Assembly: GCF_000195755.1 (NCBI RefSeq)
Contig: NC_002937.3
Span: 2,340,001-2,372,000, forward strand
Direction: 5' to 3'
Source of the DNA: Nitratidesulfovibrio vulgaris str. Hildenborough
GTDB lineage: Bacteria > Desulfobacterota > Desulfovibrionia > Desulfovibrionales > Desulfovibrionaceae
DNA: 32,000 nucleotides
Part shown: positions 7,717-32,000 of the stretch, piece after piece
Position numbering within the stretch: position 1 is the first letter of the stretch
How the letters are laid out: each line of letters begins with the position of its first letter
Notes under the pieces: model-generated
The model's database searches: none
Told to the model about the DNA's origin: nothing
Seen by the model: the letters and a program-made list of their open reading frames with translations, nothing else
Made by a program: the position numbers and the translations under genes

Positions 7717-9192
7717 TCAATGCCGGGCGTGCGTAATTCGACCGTTGCGTTCGAGCAACGATATGGTGTTGGCGACCTGACGTCCGAGAGGCGTCTCGCG
7801 GTTCATCTCGCGCTCCAGCGCGGTGATACCCTTGAGCACCGTGGAGTGCCGACGATTGAAACGGTCGCCAATCTCTTTCAGCGAAAGGTCGGTGTGCTTG
7901 CGTGCCAGAAGATAGGCCGCGTTGCGCGCCACGACATACTCACGCTTGCGGCTGCGCGAATTGAGCTGCTCAGGGGAAAGACCGAAGCCCTCGCACACCA
8001 TGCGGACGATGCCCTCAAAATCGAGCTGCGTCTCGGCCTGTGCATAGTTGCCGATGATCTCGAACGCCATCTCAAGGGAAATCTGCCTGTTGAGCAGTTT
8101 TGCCTTGAGAATGAGGTTATGCAGGCAACTTTCGATCTGACGAACGTCGGTGCTGATGCGTTCGGCAAGCAGGTCGGTCACGTTGTCGGGCAGCATCACC
8201 TGATAGATGCGGGCCTTCTCACGCAGGATACGGCGGCGGGTGTCGAAGTCCGGACGTTCGATACCGGCGAGGAAGCCGGAACAGAAACGCGAGACGAGCT
8301 GGTTGTCGACGTTCTTGAGGTCACGCGCCGCGAACGAACTGGAGAAGACGATGCGGCTGCCGCGCGACTGCAGGGCCTTGACGGTGGCGAGCACCTCGTC
8401 CTGCATCTTCTCCTTGCCTTGCAGGAAATGGACGTCTTCAAGCAGCAGCACGTCGACATCGCGATATCTGGCCTTGAAGCGTTCAACGTCACGCGCCTTG
8501 AGCGCGGCGATGAGACGCGAGGCGAACTCCTCGGCGGTGAGGTAGGCAACGTTGGGGTTGCTGCGATTGCTCGACTCGCACAGCGACCTGCCCACGGCAT
8601 GCAGCAGGTGGGTCTTGCCGAGGCCGGGCCCGGAACTCAGGAACAGCGTATCGGTCATGAGACCGTCGCGGCACATGCCACGCGCAGCGGCACAGGCAAG
8701 TTCGTTGTTGGGCCCGACGATGAAATCATCGAACGAGAAACGCCAGTTGGTGCGACTCTGCGGGACGGGAGCCCAGTCCAGAGGCAGTCCGAGCTGTTCC
8801 TGCGCCTGCTGCGTCTCCGCAGACAGACGCCGGGGGGCATGTCCCGAGGGACGCGCCTCGACGGCAGGGACGACGGACGGTACGGGCGCGGCAGTTGGCA
8901 CGACCTCGACCACTGCGGGCCGGGGTGCCAGCACGGGGCGCGGCGCAGCGGCAGCGGGAGCGCCGGCAGTGACGACGACCTCGACGGTGTCGCCGATAAC
9001 GCCACAAGCGGCGGTACGGATGTCTTCGAAAAGACGGTCACGCACCCAGCCGGCCACGAACTCGTTGGGGGCCTCGACGCGAAGAGTCGACCCGTCCACC
9101 TCACCGGCGAGCGGCGAGATCCAGACTTTGAACAGTCCGGGAGCGAGCGTGTTCTGGAGGATATGCTGAATTTGGCCCCAAATCGATGTCAT
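7717..9192 (-). CDS. dnaA: Chromosomal replication initiator DnaA (full four-domain architecture)
   Basis: The start [12 protein letters not shown] lies at 9190-9192. Domain I is present, followed by a long Pro/Ala-rich linker. The AAA+ module has Walker [11 protein letters not shown] and LLLEDVHFL. Domain IV has [35 protein letters not shown]. Confidence 0.93.
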
Positions 9193-9370
9193 ACGCGGGT
9201 CTTTACGTTTCTCGCCTTCATGATGCAACACGCGAAATCATCCTATACGGGCGTCTCCTGCAGAGGCCCGTTCCCCAACACCATACAAATTGCAACATGC
9301 TGATTTACATAGGGATGTCCCGATGCACCACGCTCTGCCTCCATACCCTGACAGCGTTGTCTGGCAAGGG

Positions 9371-16164: not shown

Positions 16165-16240
16165 GGGGATGTAGCTCAGCTGGGAGAGCGCAGCGTTCGC
16201 AATGCTGAAGTCAGGGGTTCAATCCCCCTCATCTCCACCA
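16165..16240 (+). tRNA. tRNA-Ala (anticodon CGC), CCA encoded
   Basis: 76 nt. The fold is acceptor GGGGATG/CATCTCC with the G3:U70 Ala identity pair, D arm GCTC-AGCTGGGA-GAGC, anticodon stem CAGCG/TGCTG with loop TTCGCAA, and T arm AGGGG-TTCAATC-CCCCT. Confidence 0.95.
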
Positions 16241-16695: not shown

Positions 16696-18633
16696 TCAGA
16701 ATTCATACATCAGTGAGAGGTTGCCTCCTACGCCCTCACGTATGCCGGTGTAGCCCTGTGCGCCAAGATCAATAGAAAAGCCCGTGTCTGGCAGAGGCTT
16801 CCATGTGACCCCCACCTCGCCCAAGCCCGTGCCACCCTTCAGGCTTGGCGCGGGAGCGTCAACTCCGGCCACCACGCTGTGCGCCGTACCATCGAACTCG
16901 TATTCCCACGCCGCACCGAAGTACGGCGCGATGCATTCATTCAGCGAGTAGCCGAAACGCGCCCCAAGGCGGGTACGATGCGAATCCACGTCATCAAGGG
17001 TCACTGCGTCACCCAGTATGCTCACGTCCGCCCCGTTTGTGTGCGTCCAGAAATACTTGGCGTACACGTCAATCCAAGCCTGCTCTGTGATGTTCCAGAT
17101 GTACCCCAGGCCCGTGTGCGCACCGTAATAGGCAACACTGATGTCGTACTCGGCCTCGCCCAGCGTCGGGTTCAGGTCATCGCTTCTGTAGTCGGAACGA
17201 AGCCTGCCCGCACGCACCGTCGCTTCGGCATACAGCCCACGCGCTACACCCTCGGTGACTTCCACCCGGCCAAGGAGACCGCCGCCCACAGAACGGCTAT
17301 CGCCCTGCGCCGTGATACTGTCGCCCGCAGCCGTTTCGTTGTGGCTGTCGTAGGAACCGATGCTTGTCTCAAAGAACCCTCCCACAAGCAGGTCTACGCC
17401 GCTTACGGGCAGGCGTTTGGCAAGACCGGTCATGAGGGCAACACTCTGCATGTCCACGTGAGACCCCGTTGCATAGCGAGAGGTCGCGCCGGACGTGGCG
17501 CCGAAGCCCGACCAGCCTGCCTGCGCCATGTTGTCCGCGCCAAGTGAGGCTGCCGCACGCGCATTGCCCATACCCGGCCCGGCAGCAAGGTCCGCGCCTT
17601 GCGTCACAAGGGCGATGCTTGCCGTCTTGCCTTCGGACGGGGATTTGCGGACACTTTCATCCGTCTGTTCGATGCTGATCACGCGGGCCACCAGACTGTT
17701 GAGGGTTGTTTCCAGACCGAAGGTGTAGAGGCTCGAAATGCCCGCCATGCCCGAGACATTGTTGGTCATGCCCGTGTCGGCGTATAGTCGTGAGGTGCTT
17801 TTGATAAGGGTAACGGTGTCATTGACAGCCAGCGGGGTTCCGCTGCCCATGATGCCCACGCCCACGGTGGTGGGGGCGATGGAAGGGCCGGATGAGGGAG
17901 TTTCGATCACAACCCCGTTATCCACGGTGAGCACCGTGTCGCCGGCCCGCACCGTTCCGGGCAGATAGAAGCGGAAATGCTGGAAATTTTCGATGCCCAG
18001 AGTCTGAAGGTTCAGGGTATGGATTTCCAGTGTGTTGTCGGTGCGCGCGTCCCGCGCCGGGTCACCCGAACCGACCTCTGCGCGACCGCCCATAAGGGCT
18101 GTTCTGCTCAGGTCAGGATTGCCGAAGATACGCAGGGTATTACCGGTAGCGATGCCCCCCGTAGAAAACCCACCAAATACGCCGAGGGGACTTAGCGTGC
18201 CGCCGGTTATGATCACCGTATTATTGCTGGCGTTACCGCTGCCGGAATCATCGCTGAAGCCACCGTATAACCCTTCACCAGCATATGTGCCGCTGGTTAT
18301 TGTCACCTGATTGCCGTTGGCGTTGCCGCCATCGCTGTAGCCACCGATGATGGGGCCGCTGATGTTGAGGTCGGTAATATCGGGGTCAAAAATGACGTTC
18401 CCGCCCGTGACACCCGTGGTGTCGGACTTATAGATACCAACGTAGCCGGGATTCGCGAAATTCCAGCTAGGCAGGTTTTCGGTGGTGCCACCAAAGTTGG
18501 CAGCCCACAGAGGCGCGGCAAGTGCGAACAATGCAAGAAAAAGCAGTGTTGCTGCAACGCGCGCGGAATGGCTGTGCGCGCGCCACGGAATTGTGGTAGC
18601 CTGTGGGGGCCGCAGACGCATAGGTAATAACAT
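16696..18633 (-). CDS. Autotransporter outer-membrane protein (Gly-rich passenger plus C-terminal beta-barrel)
   Basis: The start MLLPMRLRPP lies at 18631-18633 with GGAAGGG upstream. There is a long signal peptide ending LFALAAPLWA-AN. The passenger has repeated GG(Y/F)S..GN..N.V.I motifs. The C-terminal ~270 aa alternate in beta-strand pattern and end in the OMP terminus NLSLMYEF. Confidence 0.85.
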   Translation of the reverse strand: MLLPMRLRPPQATTIPWRAHSHSARVAATLLFLALFALAAPLWAANFGGTTENLPSWNFANPGYVGIYKSDTTGVTGGNVIFDPDITDLNISGPIIGGYSDGGNANGNQVTITSGTYAGEGLYGGFSDDSGSGNASNNTVIITGGTLSPLGVFGGFSTGGIATGNTLRIFGNPDLSRTALMGGRAEVGSGDPARDARTDNTLEIHTLNLQTLGIENFQHFRFYLPGTVRAGDTVLTVDNGVVIETPSSGPSIAPTTVGVGIMGSGTPLAVNDTVTLIKSTSRLYADTGMTNNVSGMAGISSLYTFGLETTLNSLVARVISIEQTDESVRKSPSEGKTASIALVTQGADLAAGPGMGNARAAASLGADNMAQAGWSGFGATSGATSRYATGSHVDMQSVALMTGLAKRLPVSGVDLLVGGFFETSIGSYDSHNETAAGDSITAQGDSRSVGGGLLGRVEVTEGVARGLYAEATVRAGRLRSDYRSDDLNPTLGEAEYDISVAYYGAHTGLGYIWNITEQAWIDVYAKYFWTHTNGADVSILGDAVTLDDVDSHRTRLGARFGYSLNECIAPYFGAAWEYEFDGTAHSVVAGVDAPAPSLKGGTGLGEVGVTWKPLPDTGFSIDLGAQGYTGIREGVGGNLSLMYEF

Positions 18634-19064
18634 AAACCCTTCCTGAAGTTGTAACGTGGTGTTTCCCCTGACGTGTTGCGGATGCAAATATGCCCGGTGC
18701 AGCGGGTGCTGACATCGGGCATGGATACGGCCTCATTCAATAGAGGCTATATCTGCAATACAGGTAATAATAACAGTATGTTTTTGTTATGTAAACAGTA
18801 TATACCACCTATCTACAGTGTGTGAGGACATTCGACGCATCACCGAAAAACAACGATGCGGCCTTCGGAATGAGTGGCCAGAGCGCACACATCAGCACCA
18901 TATTGCCGCTCATGCCTTCGCGCCTGCCTATATAGCACGATGTCCCAAAACCATGTCGAAGGGCATGGCCAGAGACAATGAAGCTTCACGGAAGATTCTA
19001 TAATGCCGCAGATAGAGACCATCTCCGGCCGCGAAGCCTGAATTCGCCTTCCACAACGAACGAA

Positions 19065-19129: not shown

Positions 19130-19423
19130 TCATGCCTGTTCAGCGAAGAGCAGCACTTCGTTGTTGTCGTTGAACGACAGTGTGAACACCGTGCCGTACT
19201 TCACGAGAAAGTCCTTTTCGGCAATGAACGGCACGTCCTCGACGTCGACGCGGACATCCTCATCCATATCCTGTTCTTCCATTCCGAGGCCGAGGATGAC
19301 CTTCGAACTGCATCCCGACCCGTGCTTGTATTCGCGCAGGCGCACGCAGGTTCCGTCATCCTCTTCGGCAAGCATCGCACGTAGTTTGTCCAGCATGGCT
19401 GCGGGTACGGTAAGGGTGAACAT
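19130..19423 (-). CDS. Small HesB/IscA-like protein, Cys form (97 aa)
   Basis: ATG 19421-19423 has AAGGAG upstream. The product is MFTLTVPAAMLDKLRAMLAEEDDGTCVRLREYKHGSGCSSKVILGLGMEE... The R-L-R-x-x-x-x-G-x-G-C-S pattern resembles the first-Cys region of A-type carriers, but the C-terminal CGC is absent. Cys38 is encoded at 19310-19312. Confidence 0.75.
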   Translation of the reverse strand: MFTLTVPAAMLDKLRAMLAEEDDGTCVRLREYKHGSGCSSKVILGLGMEEQDMDEDVRVDVEDVPFIAEKDFLVKYGTVFTLSFNDNNEVLLFAEQA

Positions 19424-19647: not shown

Positions 19648-19684
19648 GGAAAACGCAAAAGCCCCCTGTCGAGGCGACAGGGGG
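19648..19684 (-). terminator. Rho-independent terminator ending the GRE-activase-selenoprotein unit
   Basis: The minus strand reads CCCCCTGTCG-CCT-CGACAGGGGG followed by CTTTTGCGTTTTCC. It lies 40 nt after the TAG at 19725. Confidence 0.75.
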
Positions 19685-19724
19685 CGGCAATGGCGGTGAA
19701 CGCGGCACTCGCCGTGGGGCTTTG

Positions 19725-20018
19725 CTAGCCTTCCACGGGGCTGAGCACAACCTCTCTGTTCTCGCCGAACGTGAGGCTGTAGGCCGTACCGTATTTCACC
19801 AGAAAATCCTTGTTGGCGGAGAACGGTACGCCGTTCACTTCAATCTGCTCGTCCTCATCCTCGTCAAGTTCGTCCATGCCCAGACCGAGCACGATCTTGG
19901 CATGTCAGCCGCCGCCGACCTTGTACTCGCGCAGTCGCACGCAGGTTCCTTCATCTTCGTCCTCGAGCATGGCGCGCAGCCTGTCGAGCATCTCTTCCGT
20001 TACGGTGACAGTGAACAT
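19725..20018 (-). CDS. HesB/IscA-like selenoprotein candidate (97 aa; UGA-Sec at codon 38)
   Basis: ATG 20016-20018 has GGAGAA upstream and lies 20 nt after the activase stop. The frame reads MFTVTVTEEMLDRLRAMLEDEDEGTCVRLREYKVGGG, then TGA (19905-19907), then HAKIVLGLGMDELDEDEDEQIEVNGVPFSANKDFLVKYGTAYSLTFGENREVVLSPVEG, then TAG. The post-TGA part is collinear with the paralogue at 19130-19423, and the TGA aligns with that paralogue's Cys38. Confidence 0.7.
19875..19904 (-). promoter_or_regulatory. Candidate bacterial SECIS stem-loop immediately 3' of the UGA
   Basis: The mRNA reads UGA-CAUGCC-A-AGAUCG-UGCU-CGGUCU-G-GGCAUG. This is 6 bp, a 1x1 A/G mismatch, then 6 bp (one G-U pair), capped by a G-containing tetraloop that starts 14 nt after the UGA. 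Confidence 0.55.
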
Positions 20019-20038: not shown

Positions 20039-20932
20039 TTACACCATGACGGGCACGAGCCCGTGTTTCGCAAACCTGTCCAGAACAGCCGAAAGCTGCT
20101 CGGGAGTGTACTGGGGCATGTCGGGCGCGGGCAGGCCCAGCGCCACGTATTTGTTCCATCCGAAGGCATGGCACGGCATGACCTCCACCTTGTCGCGCCC
20201 GAATTCGCCAAGCAGGGCGGCGAGGGCGGAGAGGTTGGCGTCATCGTCGTTCATGCCGGGAATGAGCGGCATCCTCACATGCACTTCCTTGCCTGACGCC
20301 AGCGCGGCGCGCAGGTTGCGCAGAATCAGCGTATTGTCCTGCCCGGTCAGGCGGCGGTGCGCCTCCGGGTCGGTGTGCTTGCAATCGAAGAGGAAGAGGT
20401 CGGCAAGGGCGAGGGTACGGTCGAAGCGCTCTTCGGGACAGAAACCGCAGGTGTCGACCGTGACATGGATGCCCTCTTCATGCGCCGCCTTGACGAGGTC
20501 GAGAAAGAACTCGCCGCCGGAGGTGGGCTCACCACCGCCGAAGGTCACGCCACCGCCGGAATTCTCGTAGAAGAGCATGTCCTTGAGAACGACATCCATG
20601 ACCTCTTCGACGGTCATGAGGCGACCCGACATCTCACGCGCCTTGCTTGGGCACGAGGCCGTACACAGGCCGCAGTGGGTGCATTTCGCGATGGAACGGA
20701 TGACCTTGCCATCGACGATGCGCGCCGCCCCTTCGGGACAGACCTCCACGCACTTGCCGCAGCCGGTGCAGAGGTTCTCGAAGAACAGCATCTGGGGAAC
20801 GGCACTCTGCGACTCGGGATTGCTGCACCACAGACACCGCAGCGGGCAGCCCTTGAGGAAGACGGTGGTGCGCAGGCCGGGGCCGTCATGCACCGACATA
20901 CGCTGGATATTGTAGATCATTCCCTGTCGCAT
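20039..20932 (-). CDS. Glycyl radical enzyme activating enzyme (radical SAM with two extra ferredoxin-type clusters)
   Basis: 297 aa with GGAG upstream. The radical SAM motif is CPLRCLWCSNPE. Auxiliary cluster motifs are CTGCGKCVEVCP and CTHCGLCTASCP. The SAM-binding GGGVTFGGGEP is present. Confidence 0.93.
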   Translation of the reverse strand: MRQGMIYNIQRMSVHDGPGLRTTVFLKGCPLRCLWCSNPESQSAVPQMLFFENLCTGCGKCVEVCPEGAARIVDGKVIRSIAKCTHCGLCTASCPSKAREMSGRLMTVEEVMDVVLKDMLFYENSGGGVTFGGGEPTSGGEFFLDLVKAAHEEGIHVTVDTCGFCPEERFDRTLALADLFLFDCKHTDPEAHRRLTGQDNTLILRNLRAALASGKEVHVRMPLIPGMNDDDANLSALAALLGEFGRDKVEVMPCHAFGWNKYVALGLPAPDMPQYTPEQLSAVLDRFAKHGLVPVMV

Positions 20933-20990: not shown

Positions 20991-21029
20991 ATGAAAAGAA
21001 GAAGGCGGGAGCCGGGTTCGGCCCCCGCC
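20991..21029 (-). terminator. Intercistronic hairpin plus T-tract between the GRE and activase genes (probable partial terminator)
   Basis: The minus strand reads GGCGGGGGCCG-AACC-CGGCTCCCGCC, an 11-bp stem with one G-U pair, followed by TTCTTCTTTTCAT. Confidence 0.55.
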
Positions 21030-21043
21030 AGTCGATCATGCCA

Positions 21044-23497
21044 TTAGTTCTTGTATTCTGTGCGCTTGATGATCTCGTTCTGCACACCCTTGTCGAGGCG
21101 GGTGAAGTAGGCGCTGAAGCCTGCCACGCGCACGACGAGGTCGGCGTATTCCTGCGGCTTGCACTGCGCGTCCTTCAGGGTATCGGAGCTCACGCAGTTG
21201 AACTGGATGTGCGAACCGCCGAAGTCGCAGTAGGTCTTGATCAGCGACACGAGGGTACGGGCACCGGCAGGCCCTTCGATCACCGAGGGGTTGAACTTCA
21301 CGTTGAAGTGGTTGGCCCCGTAGCGCACGGTGTCGATGGCTTCGGCACCGGACTTGATGAGGGCGGTGATGCCTTCATGGTCGGTACCGGGCATGGCGGA
21401 GACGCTACCGTCGGTGAGTGCCACGCCAGCCTTGCGGCCGTTGGGCAGTGCGCCCATGAGCGAACCGAAGTAGTTGTGGTACGACAGCGAGTAGGCGTCC
21501 AGCGGGGTGCGGTAGCCGAAGCAGTCCGGGCCCTGCGCACTGTGGATGGCGTCCACGTCGCGGTAGAAGCGCTGCACGAAGTGCTCCACTTCGGGGTAGT
21601 CGTTACCGTGCTTGGGCGCCTCGAAGCACATCTTGCGGATGTCTTCGTAGCCTTCGAAGTTGGCCTTCAGGGCTTCAAGCAGCTTCTCCATGGTCACCTG
21701 CTTCGTTTCGAAGACAAGGTACCTGATGGCCAGCAGCGAGTTGGCGGCGTCGATGCCTGCGGTCATGATGGGGTTGACCTGCGGGTAGCGCGTACCACCG
21801 GCCTCTTCGCACATGCCCTTGTCGATGCAGCCGTCGTACATGGCCGAACGGAAGACGCTGGGCACAACCTGAAGCCGGGCCATCTGGCTGAGGTCGGAGT
21901 GCTTGCGCGAGATGTTGAAGAGATGGTCGAGTTGCTTCTTGGTGGCTTCGTACACTTCCTCGAAGGTGGTGAAGGTGGTCGGGTCGCCGGACTCGACGCC
22001 CACCTGCTTCTTGGTCACAGGGCACTTGCCGTTGTTGAGCATGAGCTCGACGACCTTGGCGAGGCAGGGCTGGTCTTCCTGCGTGATGAAGCTGCCCTTG
22101 CCGCAGATGCCGGTGGACACGCACCCGTAGTTGCCGCAGTTGCGGGCGTCTTCGAGGGTGATGCCGCCTTCGTACTGCGCGAAACGGGCGAGGTTGCGCT
22201 GGATGACCACGTTGTTGTTGAGGATCTGGGGCTGGCCGGAGCCGCCGCGGATGCACTCCACAACCTTCTTCATGTACGAGTCCTTCAGCTTCGGATGGTA
22301 GAGCAGGGTCAGCGTGGGCTGGATGTTCTTCATCTGAATCTGGGTGTCGAGCAGCACCTCTTCGAGTTCGGTGCTTGCGTCGTCACCGTTGGCGTCGACA
22401 CCGCCGATGGTGATGGACTGACCGGTGTGACCGGACAGGGTCATGGCGTAGGAGGCCCCCTGGTACTCGCCCAGTTCGAGGTGCTTGATCCACTGGAACT
22501 TCAGCAGGGTGAGCACCTGTTCGCGGGTGAGGTTCCCCTCTTCGATGTCCTTCTTGTAGAAGGGGTACATGTACTGGCCGTAACGACCGGGCGAGGTGGC
22601 GCAGGCCATCTGCTCGGTCTCGATGGCGAGGTGGATGAACCAGAAGGACTGGATGGCTTCGCGGAAGTTGCGGGCCGGGTATTCAGGCACGCGGCGGCAT
22701 ATCTCGGCGATCTCGAGCAGTTCTGCCTTGGCCTTGGGATCGCTCTCTTCGGCGGCGGTCTTCTCGGCGAGTTCGGCGTAGCGATGCGAATGGGCGATGA
22801 CAGCCTCGAACGTCACCAGCATGGCGCGGTAGAGGTCATGCTTCTCCTTGTTCGCAAGGGTGGTGGGGCAGGCTTCGAAACGTGCGCGCACGTCGTCGGC
22901 GAGCCAGCGCAGGCCCTTGTTGAGCACCAGCGGATAGTCGGCGATGCCCGAGCCGCTGGCGACGCTGACGTTCTCGTAGTACATGCCCGCCTTGGCGAAG
23001 GGCGCGGGGTTGATGCCGTACTTCTCCTTGAACATCTTGTTGTTCAGGTCGATGCAGGTGCGGCCCTTCCACAGCTTGTAGGTCTTCTCGAGAAGCTCTT
23101 GCGTCTCCTGCGGGATCTTCATCTCGCCAAGAGAGGCCATCTTGGCCATCTGCATCTCTTCCTTGATCCACGAGACGTTCCATTCGGGGTAGGCGTACAC
23201 GCCAGCGCGCACACCGGTGAGGGTGCCCACGATGGGGTTGCCGTCGAGGAATATCTTCTTGCGGAGGAGCACCCGCTCAAGCAGCTTGGCGCGGATGTAG
23301 ACGACGGGCTCGCCCTGGAATTCGTCGTAGACGTCGAGAAGGCACTGCAGACGTTCGGGGTCCATCACCTGCGGCGCGGCAAGAAGAAAGTCCTTGAGTT
23401 CCTTGACGCGCGATTCGGCGGTATCCCAGTTGATGCCGTAGCCCTTGTTTGCAGGGGTCTGGCCTTCGGTGTTCGATGCGGAAGAAAGAGCAGCCAT
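21044..23497 (-). CDS. Glycyl radical enzyme, PFL2/glycerol-dehydratase-like architecture, substrate unknown
   Basis: I prefer ATG 23495-23497 because AGGAG lies 7 nt upstream; the track ORF begins at a GTG 12 codons earlier. 817 aa. The C-terminal glycyl radical motif is LVVRVAGFSAYFTRL (Gly codon 21119-21121). The Cys loop is NYGCVSTGICGKG (Cys codon 22121-22123). Confidence 0.93.
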   Translation of the reverse strand: MAALSSASNTEGQTPANKGYGINWDTAESRVKELKDFLLAAPQVMDPERLQCLLDVYDEFQGEPVVYIRAKLLERVLLRKKIFLDGNPIVGTLTGVRAGVYAYPEWNVSWIKEEMQMAKMASLGEMKIPQETQELLEKTYKLWKGRTCIDLNNKMFKEKYGINPAPFAKAGMYYENVSVASGSGIADYPLVLNKGLRWLADDVRARFEACPTTLANKEKHDLYRAMLVTFEAVIAHSHRYAELAEKTAAEESDPKAKAELLEIAEICRRVPEYPARNFREAIQSFWFIHLAIETEQMACATSPGRYGQYMYPFYKKDIEEGNLTREQVLTLLKFQWIKHLELGEYQGASYAMTLSGHTGQSITIGGVDANGDDASTELEEVLLDTQIQMKNIQPTLTLLYHPKLKDSYMKKVVECIRGGSGQPQILNNNVVIQRNLARFAQYEGGITLEDARNCGNYGCVSTGICGKGSFITQEDQPCLAKVVELMLNNGKCPVTKKQVGVESGDPTTFTTFEEVYEATKKQLDHLFNISRKHSDLSQMARLQVVPSVFRSAMYDGCIDKGMCEEAGGTRYPQVNPIMTAGIDAANSLLAIRYLVFETKQVTMEKLLEALKANFEGYEDIRKMCFEAPKHGNDYPEVEHFVQRFYRDVDAIHSAQGPDCFGYRTPLDAYSLSYHNYFGSLMGALPNGRKAGVALTDGSVSAMPGTDHEGITALIKSGAEAIDTVRYGANHFNVKFNPSVIEGPAGARTLVSLIKTYCDFGGSHIQFNCVSSDTLKDAQCKPQEYADLVVRVAGFSAYFTRLDKGVQNEIIKRTEYKN

Positions 23498-23711: not shown

Positions 23712-23727
23712 TGCACAAGCCATGCCA
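23712..23727 (-). promoter_or_regulatory. Sigma-54 (-24/-12) promoter of the GRE operon
   Basis: The minus strand reads TGGCAT-GGCTT-GTGCA, with correct GG-N10-GC spacing against the consensus TGGCAC-N5-TTGCW. It lies about 215 nt upstream of the GRE ATG. Confidence 0.65.
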
Positions 23728-23906
23728 CGGCCCTTTCACAGCCGCCCGACGTTGCCAACACTACGGAATGCCCTTCCCTTCTCGCCTTTTTTCACAATCT
23801 CCGCCGACCATTTTTTATCGATTGAGAAAAAAACTTTCTTTTCACAAAGAAATCTTCTAGGTTCCCTTCCCGACCACACCATGAGCCTTCCGTGCGAGGA
23901 CCCCCC

Positions 23907-25445
23907 ATGATGCCCCTAGACAGCAGCACTTTCGCCGACGTAAGCCGCGCAGCCGTTCTCACGCCGGCCATGCAGACCATATGGGAAAGTATGGGGGTGG
24001 GGGTCGCCGTGGTGGACGGAGAGGGCATATGCCGCTTCATGAACACCATCCAGCGGCGTGTGGACGGTTTCAGCCGCATTTCCGTGGTCGGGCGGCACAT
24101 CACGAGTCTCTATGTACCGCACGAACTCGAATGCATCCCCACCATCGAGTGTCTCCGCAAGGGCGAACCCATCCTGAAGAAGGCGTACTGGTACAAGACC
24201 ACCAACAACTACCTTGCCAGCACAGTCACGGACTTCATCCCCCTCTATGACGCGGGACGTAAGGACGGGGTCATAGCCTTCACCATCTGGACGGGAACGA
24301 CAGCCTTCGCCGAAGGGCGCAAACGCCAGCCCCGCCCGCCGCAGCCCAAAGGGGCGGCCTATGACTTCTATACGTTCGACAGCATCGTGGGACAGGACGC
24401 CAACCTGCGCGAGGTCATCGCCGAAGCGCGTACGGCAGCCGCAACCTCTTCGCCGGTGATGATCTGGGGGGAAAGCGGCACGGGCAAGGAGGTGTTCGCG
24501 CAAGCGATCCACTCCGAGAGCGACCGCAGACAGCGACCGTTCATCCCCGTGAACTGCGCCGCCATTCCCGAGAACCTGCTCGAAGGCATCCTCTTCGGCA
24601 CGGTCAAGGGCGCGTACACGGACGCCGCCGACAAGCCCGGGCTCTTCGAAGAGGCCGATGGCGGCACCCTGCTCTTCGACGAGCTGAACTCCATGCCGCT
24701 GGGTTTGCAGGCCAAGCTGCTGCGCGTATTGCAGGAGAAACGCGTGCGCCGCCTCGGTTCGCATACGGAAGTCCCGGTAGACGTGCGCATCATGAGCATC
24801 CTCAACGAAGAACCGTTGCAGGCCGTGGAACATGGCGTCCTGCGGCGCGACCTCTTCTACCGTCTCGCCGTGGTGGGCATCTCCGTGCCGCCCCTGCGCG
24901 AACGCAGGAACGACATCCCGCTTCTCGCCCGCATGTTCATCGACCGTTCAGAATTGGCGACGCGCCCCGGTGGGCCGGGGACAGTCGGCGTCAACGACGA
25001 TGTACTGCACATGTTCATGCACTACGACTGGCCGGGCAACATCCGCGAACTCCTGCATGTCGTGGAGGGCAGCCTCGCGCTTCTGGGTGATGGCCCGGAG
25101 ATATGCCCCGCATGTCTGCCGCGGCACTTCCGGGAGGCATGCCATGCGACGGGGAGCACTCCCGCAACGGTTTCGGACATCGTGACGCAGGCCCCCACCC
25201 TCCCCGCCCCCGCGGCCGCTGCCGGCGAGACCGGCGATGCGGGCCTCTACTACGACTACCGGAACATCCGCAAAAGCCACGTCGTCCCGCTCAAGGGATG
25301 CCTGCAGAAATACGAGACCCAGTGCATCTCCAACGTGTTGCGGGTCACGGGGGGGAATGTGGCGAAGGCCGCCCGCATCATGCAGGTCACTGGGGCGGGA
25401 CTGCGTTACAAGATGAAGGCCCTCGACATCTCGGACGAGGATTGA
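23907..25445 (+). CDS. Sigma-54-dependent enhancer-binding protein (PAS sensor, AAA+, Fis-type HTH; no receiver domain)
   Basis: ATG 23907 has GAGGA 6 nt upstream. The N-terminal PAS-like module is MGVGVAVVDGEGICRFMN... The AAA+ module has Walker A GESGTGKE and a GAFTGA-position loop reading GAYTDA, plus GGTLLFDEL, KLLRVLQEKRVRRLG and WPGNIRELLHVVE. The C-terminal HTH is ISNVLRVTGGNVAKAARIMQVTGAGLRYKM. Confidence 0.92.
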   Translation: MMPLDSSTFADVSRAAVLTPAMQTIWESMGVGVAVVDGEGICRFMNTIQRRVDGFSRISVVGRHITSLYVPHELECIPTIECLRKGEPILKKAYWYKTTNNYLASTVTDFIPLYDAGRKDGVIAFTIWTGTTAFAEGRKRQPRPPQPKGAAYDFYTFDSIVGQDANLREVIAEARTAAATSSPVMIWGESGTGKEVFAQAIHSESDRRQRPFIPVNCAAIPENLLEGILFGTVKGAYTDAADKPGLFEEADGGTLLFDELNSMPLGLQAKLLRVLQEKRVRRLGSHTEVPVDVRIMSILNEEPLQAVEHGVLRRDLFYRLAVVGISVPPLRERRNDIPLLARMFIDRSELATRPGGPGTVGVNDDVLHMFMHYDWPGNIRELLHVVEGSLALLGDGPEICPACLPRHFREACHATGSTPATVSDIVTQAPTLPAPAAAAGETGDAGLYYDYRNIRKSHVVPLKGCLQKYETQCISNVLRVTGGNVAKAARIMQVTGAGLRYKMKALDISDED

Positions 25446-25526: not shown

Positions 25527-26261
25527 TCACGCCACAGCGCGCCACAGGCACACAAGCCCGGCCAGCACGATGACCCCCATGAGCATGCGCCGGAACGTCC
25601 CCACGTTGATGAGGCGTACCACCGGAAAGGCACAGACCGTACCGATGATGGTGGCCGGGATGCCGTACATGGCGTAGTCGATGACGGCCTCGGTGTAGAG
25701 TCCTGCCCCGGCCTGCAACAGGCAGGTCATGGTACCGCGAATGACGAAGAAGACGCCCAGCGTCCCCAGGAACACCCGTGGCGACCAGCCCGCATACAGT
25801 CCATAGGCCCCGACGGGAGGCCCGTCGAAGGAGATGGCCGTCCCAAGCAGTCCGGCACCGAAACCGGCAGCGCCGCCGAAGCCCCACGACTCGCGGCCCG
25901 GGCCTCTGACGCGGAAGGTACGTTGCCAGTAGACGTAGTAGAGAAGCAACACCCCCACGGCCCCCTGCAGTACCGTGCCGGGCAGGACGGTGAGGATGTA
26001 CAGCCCCGCGAGGGCACCGGGAATGGAGCCCGCCAGCATGGGCCACATGGCGGAGACACGGCAGTGCCGGTAGTGCATCAGCGCGATGCAGCCGTCCATG
26101 ACCACGTTCATGATGCAACTCAGGGGCACGAGTTCGTGCATGGGAATGACCGTCGCCGCCACGGGCACAGCCACCATGGCCCCGCCGATGCCACTCACGC
26201 CAGAGACGAAACCACCTACCAGCCAGGCGAAGAATACGAGCAACGACGTGGTATCAGGCAT
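25527..26261 (-). CDS. TauE/SafE (TSUP) family anion exporter-like membrane protein
   Basis: The start MPDTTSLLVFFAWLVGGFVSGVSGIGGAMVAVP lies at 26259-26261. About 8 hydrophobic segments carry the Gly-rich G-x-GG-x-x-x-x-P signature in both halves. The ATG overlaps the upstream gene's end by 8 nt. Confidence 0.85.
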   Translation of the reverse strand: MPDTTSLLVFFAWLVGGFVSGVSGIGGAMVAVPVAATVIPMHELVPLSCIMNVVMDGCIALMHYRHCRVSAMWPMLAGSIPGALAGLYILTVLPGTVLQGAVGVLLLYYVYWQRTFRVRGPGRESWGFGGAAGFGAGLLGTAISFDGPPVGAYGLYAGWSPRVFLGTLGVFFVIRGTMTCLLQAGAGLYTEAVIDYAMYGIPATIIGTVCAFPVVRLINVGTFRRMLMGVIVLAGLVCLWRAVA

Positions 26262-26871
26262 CGGCGCCCCCATTTGCGCCCCCGCCTGAACCCTCGTCTG
26301 GCCCCTTGCCGGGGCACTCGCCCCTATCCGGCGCACCGGGCTGCAAGGGGGCACGCCCAAGCTTCCGCATGAGCAGGTCGTAGCGTTCAAGCACGAGGTT
26401 GCGTCCCGCATGCCGTGCCGAGTCCACGCAGTCAGCATAGGCCGTGAGTGCTTCAGGGGAATAGGTCTGCAACTCGCAACCGAGGTAGCGGCGGAAGCCC
26501 TCCTCCCCGTCCGCCCCGATGATGTCGGGGTGCTGCGCGGCGACCTCTGCCCGCCATGTTGATTCGACGGCGACGATGTCCTCGATGCGCGGGTCTTGGG
26601 CCTTCGTCTGCAGAAGGCCCTCCATGAGTGCGTACTTTTCGGTCATGAGATTGCGGCCCGCCTCTGCGGCCTTGCGCAGGTCGTCACGATAGGCTTCGAG
26701 AAACGGCAACGCCAGAACCCCGTGGGTCATCTCACGCATGATGCGGAACGTTCCCGGCAACTCCTGACAGGGTGAAACGCCCCCCCGGTTACGGACGGCG
26801 AGGAACATGGCGAGTTCGGCCTGCACAATGTCCTCTACAAGGGCCTCACGGCGATCAGTCGTCATGGTCAT
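26254..26871 (-). CDS. Soluble helical hypothetical protein (reminiscent of DUF4125, unverified)
   Basis: 205 aa with AGGAG upstream. It has two similar helical halves, each with an RNL(M/V)xE(K/R)Y(A/D)L(M/L) motif (AGRNLMTEKYALMEG and AGRNLVLERYDLLMR). The tail is Gly-rich and low-complexity. Confidence 0.7.
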   Translation of the reverse strand: MTMTTDRREALVEDIVQAELAMFLAVRNRGGVSPCQELPGTFRIMREMTHGVLALPFLEAYRDDLRKAAEAGRNLMTEKYALMEGLLQTKAQDPRIEDIVAVESTWRAEVAAQHPDIIGADGEEGFRRYLGCELQTYSPEALTAYADCVDSARHAGRNLVLERYDLLMRKLGRAPLQPGAPDRGECPGKGPDEGSGGGANGGADA

Positions 26872-26928: not shown

Positions 26929-27780
26929 CTACTCGGCGGCAAGGGTCATGCCTGCCGAGGCTGCGACGACGGAGGCTATACCGCCCCACTGCCCCGCGGA
27001 CAATTGCTCGTCCAGCCAGAAGCAGCCCATGAGGGCCGCCACAGCCGGGGCAAGACTCATGAGCGTACCGTAGACTTTCGGCGTGATGCGCCGTAGTGCC
27101 TGCATCTCGAGAAGGCAGGGTACGGCTGCGGAAGAGAGGGCCAGCAGCAGCCCGAAGAGCAGTGAAGACGATTCGAGCAGTGCGCCCCCCACGGTGACGA
27201 GCGACAGGGGCAGGGTCGCCACCCCCCCTGTGAACATGGCAAGCGCCAGTGCCGCGCAGCAGTCTCGGGCACAGGCCGCCTTGCCGAACCAGATGTACAT
27301 GGCCCAGCACCCCGCCGCCGCCCCGGCAAGGGCGACGCCGCGCATGTCCACCAGCCCGACGGCGTCGGGGCGCAACAGCAGCCAGATGCCCGCTGCGGCA
27401 AGGCCCACCCATGCGAAGTCCCGCGGACGGCGCGACGCGGCAAGGGCGATGACCAGAGGCCCCAACATCTGCACGCCCACGGATATGCCAAGCGGAACAT
27501 ACCGGATGGCAGCATAGGAAAAGAGGAACATGCCCCCCAGCCCGACGCCGAACAGCAGGTGGGGCCTCCACTCATCGCGCGGAATGGGCTTCTGCCAGGG
27601 ACGCGAAACCAGCGCGAGTACGGCGGCAGAGAAAAAGAGCCTGTACGTGGTGACGCCCTCGGCACCTACGACAGGAAAGAGATGCTTCGCCCAGCTGGCG
27701 CTGCAATAGATGAGCACCTCGGCACAGAGGACGAGCAACACGGCGAGATACGACGACGAAGAAGGGGCTGACTGCTGCAT
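26929..27780 (-). CDS. DMT superfamily (EamA-like) transporter
   Basis: 283 aa with GAGGA upstream. About 10 hydrophobic segments form two EamA-like halves. Confidence 0.85.
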   Translation of the reverse strand: MQQSAPSSSSYLAVLLVLCAEVLIYCSASWAKHLFPVVGAEGVTTYRLFFSAAVLALVSRPWQKPIPRDEWRPHLLFGVGLGGMFLFSYAAIRYVPLGISVGVQMLGPLVIALAASRRPRDFAWVGLAAAGIWLLLRPDAVGLVDMRGVALAGAAAGCWAMYIWFGKAACARDCCAALALAMFTGGVATLPLSLVTVGGALLESSSLLFGLLLALSSAAVPCLLEMQALRRITPKVYGTLMSLAPAVAALMGCFWLDEQLSAGQWGGIASVVAASAGMTLAAE

Positions 27781-27818: not shown

Positions 27819-27834
27819 TGCAAAGCTGATGCCG
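27819..27834 (-). promoter_or_regulatory. Sigma-54 (-24/-12) promoter of the DMT / hypothetical / TauE operon
   Basis: The minus strand reads CGGCAT-CAGCT-TTGCA with correct spacing. It lies 38 nt upstream of the DMT ATG. Confidence 0.55.
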
Positions 27835-28138: not shown

Positions 28139-28154
28139 TGGTACGCTTGTTGCT
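28139..28154 (+). promoter_or_regulatory. Sigma-54 (-24/-12) promoter of the APC permease gene
   Basis: TGGTAC-GCTTG-TTGCT lies about 115 nt upstream of ATG 28269. It is preceded by an AT-rich tract of about 200 bp. Confidence 0.6.
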
Positions 28155-28268
28155 GTTCCGGGCTCATCACGCGGTTCCTTGTCTCCGGTTGATGTTCCCG
28201 CGTGGGGCTGCGGCTAACGACCGTCGAGCCGGGAACATCCTCTTCAGCAACCCTTTGTGAGGTTCATC

Positions 28269-29777
28269 ATGTCCGAACAGTTTGAACTTGAAAAAACCCT
28301 GTCCCCGATGCAGGTGTGGGCCCTCGCTCTGGGCTCCATCGTCGGCTGGGGCTGCTTCGTGCTGCCCGGCGACATGTTCCTGCCGCAGGCTGGCCCCGTA
28401 GGGACGCTCACAGGCTTCCTCATCGGTGCCTTCCTTCTCAGCTTCGTGGCTGTCTGTTACAGCTACATGGTCAAGTACGTACCTGTTGCAGGTGGCGCAT
28501 TCGCCTATGCCTATGTCGGCTTCGGCCCGACAGCGGCCTTCATCTGCGGCTGGGCGCTCGTTCTGGGCTACATCGCCATCGTCTGCATCGACATCGCGGC
28601 CCTTGCGCTCATCTTCAGGTTCCTCTTCCCGGGGGTCTTCGAGTTCGGCCCGTTGTACTCCATCGCCGGGTGGCAGGTGTACACGGGTGAAGTGATGCTG
28701 ATGACCTTCGGCACCCTCGCCTTCGGCTGGATGAACTATCGCGGCGTGAGCTTCGCGGGCAAGTTGCAGGTCGTTCTCGCCTACATGCTGACCATCGGCA
28801 TCGTGGCGCTCTTTGCGGGCACCGCCTCCCTTGAATCGGCCCACATGAGCAACCTCATGCCCATGTTCGCCGAACATCGCACGCCGCTTTCCTGCGTGCT
28901 GATCATCTTCGCCATCTCGCCCTTCCTCTTCGTGGGCTTCGACACCGTGCCGCAGGCCGCTGAGGAGTTCGCCTTCGACCCCGCGCGCTCCCGCAGGATC
29001 ATGATCCTCGCCATCTTCATGGGCGTCATCCTGTACAGCCTCGTGGCCCTTTCCGTGGCCATCGTGATGCCCTACCCCGAAATGCTCGCCAAGATGGAAG
29101 CCCTGCGCGCCAGCGGCGGCACAGCATGGGCCACCGGCGACGCCGCCACCATGGCCTTCGGCAAGTTCGGCGCCATCGTGCTGGCCTGCGCCGTTCTCGG
29201 CGCCGTCTGCACCGGCATCAACGGCTTCTACATCGCCACCTCGCGCCTGCTGCTCAGCATGGCTCGCGGCCGCATCCTGCCTTCTTGGTTCGGCGACATC
29301 CACCCCAAGTACCGCACTCCCTACAAGGCCATCCTCTTCACCATCGCCATCGTACTGCTGACTCCCTTCGCCGGTCGTTCCGTGGTGGTATGGATCGTGG
29401 ACATGAGCTCGGTGGGAACCGGCATCGGCTACCTCTTCACCTGCCTTGCCGCCCGCCGCGTGCTTCTGGGTACTCCCGGCGTCGGCAACAAGAGCCTCAG
29501 CATCCTCTGCTGCAACATCGGCACGCTCACTTCCGTCATGTGCATCGTCCTGCTGCTGGTGCCCGGTTCGCCCGCCTACATCAGTGAAGCATCCCGCTGG
29601 TGCATGGTCGCGTGGGTAGTGATGGGCTTCTTCTTCTACTACTCCAACAAGTCCGTATGGGCCCAGTTGCCTGAGATGACGATCCGCTCGAGCATCCTCG
29701 GCAGCTGCGACATCCCTGTCTTCTTCAAGGGCAACACCTCTGGGGTGAAGGCCGCGGCCGAAGCCGCCTCGAAGTAA
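28269..29777 (+). CDS. APC-superfamily amino acid/organocation permease
   Basis: ATG 28269 has GAGG 7 nt upstream. 502 aa with about 12 TM segments. The N-terminus LSPMQVWALALGSIVGWGCFVLPG and the GGAFAYAY motif are typical of the APC family. Confidence 0.9.
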   Translation: MSEQFELEKTLSPMQVWALALGSIVGWGCFVLPGDMFLPQAGPVGTLTGFLIGAFLLSFVAVCYSYMVKYVPVAGGAFAYAYVGFGPTAAFICGWALVLGYIAIVCIDIAALALIFRFLFPGVFEFGPLYSIAGWQVYTGEVMLMTFGTLAFGWMNYRGVSFAGKLQVVLAYMLTIGIVALFAGTASLESAHMSNLMPMFAEHRTPLSCVLIIFAISPFLFVGFDTVPQAAEEFAFDPARSRRIMILAIFMGVILYSLVALSVAIVMPYPEMLAKMEALRASGGTAWATGDAATMAFGKFGAIVLACAVLGAVCTGINGFYIATSRLLLSMARGRILPSWFGDIHPKYRTPYKAILFTIAIVLLTPFAGRSVVVWIVDMSSVGTGIGYLFTCLAARRVLLGTPGVGNKSLSILCCNIGTLTSVMCIVLLLVPGSPAYISEASRWCMVAWVVMGFFFYYSNKSVWAQLPEMTIRSSILGSCDIPVFFKGNTSGVKAAAEAASK

Positions 29778-29932: not shown

Positions 29933-32000
29933 CTACCCGCCGTCCGTCACACCCGTCCTTCTCGCACGCAGCAGAGGGATATGACGCAGCACTTCGCCAA
30001 GGGCATGCATGGAAATGGGTTTGGCGAGATAGGCATCCATGCTGGCATCGAGAAAACGCTCCCGGTCTCCGTTCATCACGTACGCCGTGAGCGCCACGAC
30101 CGGAACATCGGCATTGGCACAGTGCGAGGCACGCAACAGCCCCACGGCGGTCATCCCGTCCATCTGGGGCATCTGGATGTCCATGAGCACACAGTCGAAC
30201 GGCGCGCCTACAAGCACGGCCAGTGCCTGTTCGCCGTCAGTGGCCGTCCTCACGGTGTGTCCCATTCTTTCGAGCATGGCGCGCACTGTGAACAGGTTCA
30301 CGGGGTCGTCCTCTACCACGAGCACCCGAAGCCCCTGCGGGTCCTCCTGCGGCGGGTTCACCTCGGGCGCGGCGGCCTTGGCGTCGCCTGCCGCCAGTGG
30401 CAGACAGAGGGTGAGATACACCGAAGTACCGACGCCGACCTGCGAATCGACCGTGAGCGTACCGTCATACGCATGTACCAGCGTGCGCGTTATGGCCAGA
30501 CCGAGTCCTACTCCCTGATACCGCTTGGTGAGCGGGGCCTCGACCTGCGTGAAGGGCTCGCAGATGGACCCCACCTGTTCTTCCGGGATACCGCAGCCGG
30601 AGTCGTGCACCATGAACAGGATGCGCGCCCGCCCATCGGGCATGGGCAAAAGGGTCTTCACCTCGAGTTTCATCTGCCCCCTGTTGGTGAACTTCATGGC
30701 ATTGCCCACAAGGTTGAGCAGTATCTGGCGCACCCGCACGGCATCGCCCAGAAAGGGCCCCGGGACCGCATCGAGGGCGAACTCAAGCGGGAGTCCCTTC
30801 TCGCGGGAGAGGGGTGCGAAGGTCTCACGAATGGATGCAAGGACATCGGAAAGTGTGAACGGCTGTTCGGCAAGCACGAGTTTGCCCGCCTCGATGCGCG
30901 AAAGATCGAGGATGTCGCCCAAAAGGTCGGTGAGCCTGCGCCCGGAACGTCTCGCCATGCCGAGATATTCGGCCTGACCGGCATCAAGGCCCGTGGCCTC
31001 GAGCAGGTCGAGCATACCGAGAAGGCCATTGAGCGGCGTGCGGATCTCATGGCTCATGTTGGCGAGGAACGCGCTCTTGGCCGCGTTCGCGTTATCGGCC
31101 TTCTCCTTGGCCTCACGCAGATGGAGATTGGAGTCCTCAAGCAGGGCCGTTCGTTCAGCGACACGCGTCTCCAGTTCATTGCGTGCCCGTTCCACCGCAT
31201 TGCGGGCCGCCACCTCCTGCTGGAGGGCACGCCGCAGGGAGCGCGACGACAACGCCGTGAAGACCACAAACGCGACGACGATGACGGCCACATAGGCGGC
31301 ATTGCGGAACCACGGCTGTATGGCGTCATCAAGCGCCAGTCCCACGACCACCCAGAACGGATGGTGCCCCACCTTGCGATACGAGAATATCTTCTCAAGC
31401 CCCCCCACATGGGACACTGTTCGCACCACACCCGCCTCACTGCCTCCCTGAATGGCTTCCCGCACCGGCTGTGCTCCGAATCTTCCCGGTGTGACATCCA
31501 TCTCCGGCGGCAGGGGCGGCACACGGGTGAGCATGATGAAGCCCTGGCGCAAGAACGAGATGTGACCATTGGGGCCGATGTCTATGCCCTGAAACAGTTG
31601 GCTGAACCGCTCCAGCGGAATGGTAGCCAGCACCACCCCCATGAAGACGCCGTCACCATCGGTGACCCGACGTGCAACACTGATGACCCTCTTGCCACTC
31701 AGGCGCCCCTCGATGGGTTCCGAGACCTCCATGCGAGTCGCCCCTGCACGCAGGTTCCTGAAATAGACACGATCTCCGATATGCACCCGCTGCTGTAACA
31801 GCCCGTTGCAGTCGAGCACGACCTCACCCGAGGCGTCCGCATAGAGCAGGTTGTCCACAAGGGGCAGATGATCGATGAACCGGCTGAACACGTCGGGCAG
31901 TGCCTGCCTTGCGTTGTCCCCCTCATGGCGCCGGGTCTCCCCGGCGAGTCCCAGCAACCCCACATCGAGCGTGTCGAGGTAGCCGCCGATGCGTTCAGCC
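29933..32000 (-). CDS. Hybrid sensor histidine kinase/response regulator with periplasmic Cache-like domain (5' end beyond the window)
   Basis: The frame stays open to the right edge (...[21 protein letters not shown]). It has a Cache-like sensor, then a TM segment [17 protein letters not shown]. The HisKA motif is [15 protein letters not shown]. The HATPase has [10 protein letters not shown] and GVGLGLAI. The C-terminal receiver has [10 protein letters not shown]...[12 protein letters not shown]...KP. Confidence 0.9.

Follow-up and report, generated by a model that had tools for sequence, protein, structure and literature searches.

Glycyl radical enzymes (GREs) serve as the main route by which strict anaerobes carry out hard bond cleavages, and newly assigned GRE clades have each opened up a pathway with medical or environmental importance, such as the formation of trimethylamine, p-cresol and skatole and the release of H2S from taurine and sulfoquinovose. 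Here we analysed a 32,000-nucleotide stretch of the genome of Nitratidesulfovibrio vulgaris str. Hildenborough (RefSeq assembly GCF_000195755.1, contig NC_002937.3, positions 2,340,001 to 2,372,000; hereafter the window, in whose numbering all coordinates are given) that encodes a GRE whose catalytic loop follows neither the eliminase nor the formate-lyase pattern. Running down from the high-coordinate end, the genes at this locus are an amino-acid permease on the (+) strand; EamA, DUF4125 and TauE genes on the (-) strand; a sigma54 enhancer-binding protein (EBP) on the (+) strand; and, again on the (-) strand, the GRE, its activase and a small protein with a predicted selenocysteine (Sec), beyond which lies a Cys paralogue of the latter.

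The GRE gene (21044-23497 including the stop codon, (-) strand) encodes 817 aa and is delineated by its translation, by Pfam matches (PFL-like PF02901, E 4e-155; Gly_radical PF01228, E 4e-29), by a G+C content at third codon positions (GC3) of 0.86 and by a ribosome-binding site, AGGAG, located 8 nt 5' of the ATG at 23497; the product is a 100% match to our homologue cluster P0001. Foldseek confirmed the GRE fold with TM-scores of 0.83-0.89, and the AlphaFold model has an overall pLDDT of 85.5, with values under 50 for two pocket loops (351-356 and 671-705). The glycyl radical motif reads R-V-A-G793-F-S-A-Y-F (21104-21130, (-)), of which RVAGFS is kept in 113 of 120 relatives (the best 120 of the 442 returned by our homologue search, 56-100% identical to the query), and the presence of Gly793 sets the protein apart from aminoacyl radical enzymes, in which the radical-site Gly is replaced by Ala, Ser or Thr. 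The Cys loop, N456 to G468 (22094-22132, (-)), reads N-Y-G-C459-V-S461-T-G-I-C464-G-K-G, and alignments with seven GREs match Cys459 to their catalytic Cys. An earlier note on this DNA had described an 817-aa GRE carrying these two motifs; our translation and alignments agree, and the codon positions it gave for Cys459 (22121-22123), Ser461 (22115-22117) and Gly793 are arithmetically right. Judged by its motifs, the gene encodes a functional GRE with a storage Gly, a thiyl Cys and its own activase, and since it is conserved across hundreds of genomes, a relic without function is excluded.

To place the loop, we aligned it with those of characterised enzymes. Six C-O eliminases, CutC, the C-S lyases and three isomerases all keep the motif C-x-E, in which the Glu is bound to the substrate hydroxyl, and two cysteines on the loop are found in pyruvate formate-lyase (PFL) and TdcE only (June 2026 review, PMC13450708); both rules, on which the earlier note had drawn, hold for the characterised enzymes. 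HMMER alignments place the G-C-V-E of CutC, HypD, propanediol dehydratase, HpyG and HpzG on the query G-C-V-S, with Ser461 at the site of the Glu, and BLASTP against E. coli PflB places C418-C419-V-S on G458-C459-V-S, with Gly458 at the site of PFL Cys418. The loop thus has neither C-x-E nor Cys-Cys. A second site is altered as well. The beta1 motif, G182-S183-G184 (22946-22954, (-); located by HMMER alignments, MAFFT of representatives and BLASTP to PflB), puts Ser183 where dehydratases have a His, CutC has Asp216 and PflB has Arg176; IslA carries a Gln as its polar beta1 residue, and in the eliminase-type enzymes this residue acts on the leaving group. Both polar catalytic sites of the eliminase pocket are therefore occupied by small residues, Ser461 in place of Glu and Ser183 in place of His or Asp.

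The other recognised GRE types fit no better. Against the two pyruvate-binding arginines of PFL, Arg176 and Arg435, BLASTP aligned Ser183 and a non-basic stretch, and a formate-lyase acting on pyruvate or another 2-oxoacid was rejected because these arginines are not conserved. What the query has in common with PFL and TdcE is the C-V-S after the thiyl Cys and a G-K a few residues on; identity to PflB is 25%, and PflA is not a three-cluster activase. No Arg or Gln corresponding to the sulfonate-binding triad occurs in residues 176-188 or 667-676, positions that were mapped by motif register and not by direct alignment to IslA. In X-succinate synthases, the alpha subunit is encoded together with HiPIP-like [4Fe-4S] beta and gamma subunits. 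At our locus the only conserved small open reading frames (ORFs) code for HesB-like proteins that have one Cys/Sec each; by sequence or structure, BSS and MASS rank among the poorest GRE matches, and HPAD and BSS are the weakest structurally (Foldseek).

The overall distance from characterised enzymes is large. Identity to every solved GRE is only 27-31% (HMMER), and the best matches are eliminases and isomerases, with E-values from 1e-124 to 1e-95 and Foldseek TM-scores of 0.85-0.89; because these values are similar across both groups, no characterised family is favoured. With HypD, HpyG/HpzG, CutC, the glycerol and propanediol dehydratases, HplG and PflD/YbiW the protein shares its length, a PFL2-type N-terminus and the three-cluster type of activase, but differs from them in the Ser residues at 461 and 183 and in having G-R-Y-G-Q where they have G-R-x-D-Q. 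None of the NCBIfam equivalog cut-offs was reached (bits/cut-off: HypD 501/1100, CutC 414/1050, HpsG (NF048011) 459/1000, HpfG 392/1000, PflD 391/1109), nor were those of the PFL2 subfamily model TIGR01774 (519/678), the decarboxylase models (IAD 483/1100, HPAD 377/1150) or the PFL model TIGR01255 (69/994). The remaining GRE classes are decarboxylases, X-succinate synthases, class III ribonucleotide reductases (RNRs) and aminoacyl radical enzymes, and no characterised enzyme in the review that lists them combines a C-V-[S/G] loop with an eliminase-like scaffold (PMC13450708). When uncharacterised representatives at 50% identity were aligned with MAFFT, loops without the Glu proved to be common (C-V-S, C-V-P, C-V-Q, C-V-H, C-V-T and C-V-G), so that in sequence space the missing Glu alone is unexceptional; moreover, PAD and the X-succinate synthases are characterised non-eliminases that do without C-x-E. 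The earlier note had argued for chemistry or a substrate not covered by the characterised families. This is a fair reading of the loop and of the distance, as the loop matches neither pattern, no equivalog cut-off is reached and identity to solved GREs is 27-31%, and the protein does not cluster tightly with any characterised G-C-V-S enzyme; the part of the argument that leaned on the missing Glu has lost some of its force. We conclude that the enzyme very probably carries out a non-eliminase GRE chemistry that has yet to be characterised.

The protein belongs to a well-populated clade. The listed relatives are almost all from Desulfovibrionaceae and are named in their sources merely "glycyl radical protein". 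All 118 that are full-length carry the loop G-C-[VA]-[S/G/A/T] followed by T/S-G (at position 461, 43 have Ser, 52 Gly, 11 Ala and 10 Thr), and the loop of the query is therefore no sequencing accident. G458, C459 and G463 are invariant in the clade, as is V460 in the clade alignment, where the wider set of 118 has Val or Ala. The beta1 site is Ser, Thr or Leu instead of His, Asp or Arg. The clade also replaces G-R-x-D-Q by S-P-G-R-Y-G-Q, keeps L-S-G-H357-T-G-Q360 and D667-A-Y-S-L-S-Y-H674-N675, and has as invariant pocket-region residues Cys299, His357, Gln360, Asp667, Ser670, Ser672, His674 and Asn675. When sequences are clustered at 50% identity, a single representative out of 1.84 billion clusters covers the whole clade, and the representatives nearest to it are no more than 47% identical. 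In GTDB species genomes a scan picked up 80 loci, among them those of Desulfovibrio piger ATCC 29098 (an 87% identical GRE and a 54% paralogue), Bilophila wadsworthia ATCC 49260 (58%), D. desulfuricans, Mailhella, Halodesulfovibrio, Maridesulfovibrio and Pseudodesulfovibrio; the D. piger-type cluster has 883 member sequences and the Bilophila-type cluster 872, and the clade is also present in marine Desulfovibrionaceae. By its conserved residues, this is a large, uncharacterised and mainly desulfovibrionacean clade of oxygen-sensitive radical enzymes that are neither eliminases, isomerases nor formate lyases.

Two loci add variants of the arrangement. Desulfobaculum bizertense (CP090009.1; locus L002, 1306-5926) has, beside the same permease, a second, paralogous GRE of 809 aa and G-C-V-T type. 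This GRE is accompanied by a separate sigma54 regulator of PAS type, a C_GCAxxG_C_C protein and a small protein of the Cys type, but not by a second activase. On the metagenome contig k141_2110 (L109, 836-9199), two tandem 790-aa GREs follow one activase; this 43% identical relative has a G-C-V-S-T loop, adjoins an ABC transporter with an NMT1/TauA/SsuA-type (sulfonate/taurine) binding protein and has no small partner gene.

Directly downstream of the GRE lies its activating enzyme (20039-20932, (-)), which has the radical SAM motif CX3CX2C and two ferredoxin-type CX2CX2CX3C motifs and passes TIGR02494 (381 bits, cut-off 174). The earlier note took the two extra clusters as a further sign of novelty, an argument that does not stand: they are ordinary for activases other than that of PFL and part of TIGR02494, and IseH has been described with the same two (PMC6453916). 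The gap between GRE and activase contains a GC-rich terminator-like hairpin followed by a T tract (21004-21029, (-)), a probable attenuator found by consensus scan only; a strong hairpin between the GRE stop and the activase start could attenuate the activase relative to the GRE.

The third gene of the operon encodes an ErpA/HesB-like protein of 97 aa (19725-20018, (-)) with an in-frame TGA at 19905-19907, and a 97-aa paralogue with Cys38 at the same site lies downstream (19130-19423, (-)). Both copies score 137 bits on NF033940, "ErpA-related iron-sulfur cluster insertion protein" (cut-off 65), the match of the first extending across the TGA, and only 19-24 bits on NF038090 (cut-off 85). The UGA falls at the conserved Cys, in the context K-V-G-G-G-U-H-A-K-I-V-L-G-L-G, and the frame is kept beyond it, so the codon is predicted to be a Sec position (Sec38). 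A small hairpin 17-29 nt 3' of the UGA (19878-19890, (-); consensus and local fold) is a candidate core of the Sec insertion sequence (SECIS), and a consensus fold of 20 diverse loci gives it 5 pairs, 3 of them with compensatory changes, which is weak evidence since the region is coding; a search of Rfam found no family in the region. A terminator-like hairpin (19661-19685, (-); scan) lies between the two copies; transcription of the Cys copy may thus be separate, and this copy perhaps acts as a backup that needs no selenium. When 22 diverse members were aligned, Arg28 and Cys/Sec38 proved to be the sole invariant residues, and the C-terminal C-G-C of A-type carriers is absent from all 38 full-length small proteins. 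The protein accordingly does not have the three Cys of an A-type Fe-S carrier (IscA/ErpA).

The small protein is a constant companion of the GRE. Among 72 loci with at least 1.5 kb of flanking sequence, 66 have a homologue downstream of the GRE on the same strand; in at least 48 of these 66 there is a copy with TGA, which frequently has a Cys paralogue behind it, and tandem Sec and Cys pairs recur in many loci. In all, 58 distinct TGA-containing homologous genes were found at other loci. In several cases (L005, L006, L039, L044 and L048-L057) the small gene comes directly after the GRE although 4-10 kb separate the activase from it or the activase is on the opposite strand, which speaks for a tie to the GRE rather than to the activase. 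Outside the clade the picture is mixed: the 47% identical relative P0121, whose loop is G-C-V-S-T, is followed by a Sec copy and then by its activase, and no small partner gene is present at the loci of P0122, P0124 and P0126. A metagenome scan seeded with the small protein, for which a narrower alignment was used as the broad one was too divergent, found 15 loci; in each, the gene directly upstream codes for the activase, and the GRE is there as well where the contig extends that far. A homologue search with the 97-aa protein, limited by the word index, gave 7 matches only. From this conserved pairing it seems probable, by somewhat more than an even chance, that it is the GRE itself with which the small Sec/Cys protein works as a functional partner.

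Accessory subunits are known for other GREs, and the small protein resembles HPAD gamma, BSS beta/gamma and MASS beta/gamma/delta in being encoded with the catalytic subunit throughout the clade. The known subunits are HiPIP-like [4Fe-4S] or rubredoxin-like only, with four Cys ligands (PMC13450708), whereas the protein described here is of the HesB/ErpA type and has one Cys/Sec only. HesB-like selenoproteins are recorded as a family in surveys of prokaryotic selenoproteomes; the papers searched assign them no function, and no paper found in that search ties them to GREs. Like our small protein, they have Sec at the first conserved IscA/HesB Cys, occur in anaerobic Deltaproteobacteria and coexist in Sec and Cys forms; unlike them, the GRE partner belongs to a separate NCBIfam family. 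We know of no eliminase with a Sec/Cys partner protein.

The remainder of the module consists of transporters, a DUF4125 protein and a regulator. The permease, of the APC family (28269-29777, (+); Pfam AA_permease and AA_permease_2), has an ORF that opens with a GTG at 28257 ahead of the ATG at 28269, and its orthologues, 58-82% identical, sit beside the module at most G-C-V-S subgroup loci. An EamA/RhtA-like transporter (26929-27780, (-); Pfam EamA, with NF007823 below its cut-off), the DUF4125 protein (26254-26871, (-); PF13526) and a TauE/SafE-family anion exporter (25527-26273, (-); PF01925, start inferred) follow on the other strand. TauE is found in most loci of the subgroup, and EamA genes also occur at the D. 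piger and D. desulfuricans loci. The set of permease, DUF4125, TauE, EBP, GRE, activase and small protein recurs in Pseudodesulfovibrio, Desulfobaculum, Halodesulfovibrio, Maridesulfovibrio, D. piger, D. desulfuricans and Mailhella, the D. piger version having two TauE genes and EamA.

DUF4125 accompanies the GRE in several subgroups of the clade, in some cases alongside DUF4037 and a TPR protein, and is also found near distant clade members including those of Bilophila and termite-gut Desulfovibrio. The protein is an internal duplication in which G-R-N-L-[MV]-x-E-[KR]-Y occurs twice (here GRNLMTEKYA twice). Its AlphaFold model (pLDDT 90.6) is all-helical, and a structure search found no neighbour in the PDB, the best E-value being 0.76.

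The regulator, divergent from the GRE, is a sigma54 EBP (23892-25445, (+); Pfam Sigma54_activat, AAA_lid_14 and HTH_8). Its N-terminal ~160 aa form a sensor of no recognised type, its start codon is uncertain and its best NCBIfam match, below the cut-off, is PrdR; in nearly all loci of the G-C-V-S subgroup the EBP gene lies divergently, about 2.2 kb upstream of the GRE. Motif scans placed a sigma54-type promoter, TGGCAT-N5-GTGCA, upstream of the GRE (23712-23727, (-)), a sigma54-like promoter before EamA-DUF4125-TauE (27819-27834, (-)) and another, TGGTAC-N5-TTGCT, before the permease (28139-28154, (+)). Such motifs show no excess over chance in the window as a whole (23 found, 19 expected), and therefore only their conserved placement across loci carries weight. 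An element of the type TGGCAC-N5-TTGCT (TGGCAC-N5-xTGCx) is present 80-230 nt upstream of the GRE in all 15 subgroup loci, a sigma54-like element precedes the permease in 14 of the 15, and such elements precede DUF4125 in most of the loci that have it. In the G-C-V-S subgroup, these predicted sigma54 promoters and a single EBP tie the GRE-activase-selenoprotein operon to the permease and to DUF4125-TauE(-EamA).

In other subgroups the GRE and the small protein are retained, as a rule together with DUF4125 and an EBP, but the transporters differ. The termite-gut Desulfovibrio loci have MFS and TRAP transporters together with DUF4037 and a TPR protein. A Bilophila-type contig carries a Fer4+CCG (HdrD/GlpC-like) gene (L089, 11141-12436), and TPR and DUF4125 genes are likewise found in Bilophila. 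The group with the loop V-A-N-F-G-C-V-A-S-G has MFS or TRAP transporters and a Fer4-nitroreductase fusion, ferredoxin-nitroreductase fusions also occur near the D. piger paralogue group (L073, 13746-14564; L067, 14976-15890), and C_GCAxxG_C_C genes recur near clade members. Since the subgroups swap their transporters, substrates appear to differ within the clade, with the small partner as the constant feature.

The account that we favour, and to which we give about even weight as a whole, is that of a GRE class that uses an external selenol or thiol partner on an imported amino-acid-like, possibly sulfonated, substrate. Because the acid/base residues of the characterised relatives are absent and a small selenocysteine protein is encoded alongside, the reaction is probably one that has not been described for the GRE family. 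The permease would import an amino-acid-like organic anion, from which the Cys459 thiyl would take a hydrogen atom, and a bond would then be cleaved with no need for a hydroxyl to be deprotonated. The partner's selenol or thiol, placed at or near the active site, might act as donor of a hydrogen atom or electron, for a net reductive cleavage, or as acceptor of the leaving group; the C_GCAxxG_C_C protein, the HdrD-like CCG protein and the ferredoxin-nitroreductase would recycle it, and the exporters would remove an anionic product, possibly sulfite. Thioredoxin-dependent class III RNR and selenoprotein A of glycine reductase are examples of radical or reductive enzymes that need an external small thiol or selenol protein; neither is related in sequence to the system described here, and they serve as mechanistic precedent only. 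More tentatively, and we regard this as possible but doubtful, the clade may be a new mechanistic class of GRE in which the internal acid/base pair has been lost and the Sec/Cys of a dedicated small protein acts as co-catalyst, which would make it the first selenoprotein-dependent GRE. Such an enzyme could be a non-RNR "GRE reductase" or a group-transfer enzyme that cleaves C-S, C-N or C-C bonds without an activating hydroxyl.

As to the substrate, a sulfonated amino compound is weakly indicated for the G-C-V-S subgroup by the TauE gene in the regulon, by the confinement of the clade to sulfite-respiring lineages and by the TauA/SsuA-type ABC transporter next to the 43% identical relative; restriction to sulfite-respiring lineages was the argument that led others to IseG (PMC6453916). 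We nonetheless rate a compound such as cysteate or homotaurine as an unlikely guess. IslA/IseG and HpsG resemble the query in not being linked to microcompartment genes, and the query is co-regulated with a TauE-family "sulfite exporter", but they have C-x-E and the Arg/Gln/Arg triad, and the score of the query on NF048011 is less than half the cut-off.

Several points weigh against the favoured account. At the homologous positions the query lacks the Arg/Gln/Arg triad that IslA, IseG and HpsG have, for which reason an IslA-like sulfonate pocket was rejected. TauE and the permease are missing from the other subgroups, where MFS or TRAP transporters take their place; the TauE family covers a broad range of functions, and for sulfite reducers the export of sulfite is not a necessity. 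As a homologue of Fe-S carriers, the small protein could serve cluster delivery or radical quenching and not catalysis, and the low pLDDT of the pocket loops makes the pocket geometry unreadable from the AlphaFold model. D. piger DSM 749 is, we assume, the same strain as ATCC 29098, whose genome carries the 87% identical module. This strain failed to grow when taurine was the electron acceptor (PMC6453916), and taurine was rejected as leading substrate on this ground. The literature searched, 2025-26 preprints included, yielded no substrate, biochemical or expression data for the clade, and literature on DUF4125, or on HesB-like proteins, selenocysteine, cysteate or TauE in connection with GREs, held nothing that describes it, the DUF4125 match to the limonene-operon protein LrcL and the match to a benzene cluster being irrelevant.

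Among the alternatives, the protein might be an ordinary GRE lyase for an unrecognised substrate, in which His357, His674, Asp667 or an amine of the substrate moves the protons and the small protein is an Fe-S carrier or repair factor for the three-cluster activase. The scaffold is indeed nearest to the eliminases by both HMMER and Foldseek, the pocket-region motifs contain invariant His and Asp, and the small protein not only passes a model named for iron-sulfur cluster insertion but also comes after the activase in the G-C-V-S subgroup. A carrier would, however, hardly be expected to stay directly behind the GRE where the activase is distant or on the opposite strand, nor to lack the C-terminal Cys-Gly-Cys ligands while keeping a single Cys/Sec; Sec/Cys isoform pairs are typical of catalytic redox proteins, and the same type of activase is found without such a gene at the E. 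coli pflD and ybiW loci. We therefore consider this combination unlikely.

A decarboxylase, or another C-C cleaving GRE outside the eliminases, whose substrate would be an acid derived from an amino acid and whose toxic product EamA and TauE would export, strikes us as improbable. The clade shares G-R-x-G-Q, in place of G-R-x-D-Q, with the 877-878-aa representatives P0230 and P0235, whose length is like that of IAD/HPAD-type enzymes, their putative family. The IAD score is comparable to those of the eliminase models, the module is rich in exporters, and PAD has an essential Gln484 and no identified acidic proton donor (PMC13450708). Yet the decarboxylase models remain far below their cut-offs, HPAD and BSS are at the bottom of the structural matches, the module has no HiPIP-like small subunit and nothing in the context points to arylacetates. 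Least probable of all, to the point that we give it very little credence, is a PFL-like acyl transfer in which the partner Sec/Cys would enter the active site, take the role of PFL Cys418 at the position of Gly458 and form an acyl or alkyl seleno- or thioester. G-C-V-S does align to the C-C-V-S of PflB, small residues at 183, 458 and 461 free space by Cys459, and the Sec sits in a Gly-rich G-G-G-U loop. The idea is nevertheless drawn purely by analogy with selenoprotein A of glycine reductase; the PFL arginines and most of the sequence are not conserved, TIGR01255 is far from reached, and the module has no phosphotransacetylase, kinase or CoA-linked gene.

Beyond the earlier note, and more informative than the loop alone, are Ser183 as a second lost catalytic site, the selenoprotein partner that is conserved with the GRE, and the transporter module linked to it by sigma54 promoters. 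The clade is abundant in human-gut sulfidogens (D. piger and Bilophila) and has no assigned function. A conserved GRE-selenoprotein pair would give HesB-like selenoproteins a testable function and would extend the GRE superfamily by a kind of accessory subunit and possibly also by a kind of reaction. If a GRE assisted by an external selenol or thiol is indeed at work, gut D. piger, Bilophila and other sulfate- or sulfite-reducers could cleave substrates that have no activating hydroxyl. As the module is small and self-contained, comprising a permease, the GRE, its activase, the partner, exporters and one regulator, the system is directly testable, for which D. piger ATCC 29098 or D. desulfuricans would serve.

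Three further features of the window were noticed. Directly beyond the permease is a hybrid histidine kinase with a dCache sensor, HisKA, HATPase and receiver domains (29933-31963, (-)). Upstream of the module, a DnaA-family gene (DnaA_N, Bac_DnaA, Bac_DnaA_C; 7717-9231, (-)) lies among thyX, ruvB, ruvA, yebC and ftsJ. Finally, a 663-aa ORF (16696-18687, (-)) has a signal-peptide-like N-terminus, Gly/Thr-rich repeats, the C-terminal sequence SLMYEF and no Pfam match, and resembles an outer-membrane beta-barrel or autotransporter; its segment may have been acquired, as its GC content is lower (52-62%), its GC3 is poor and it lies next to a tRNA-Ala gene (16165-16240, (+)).

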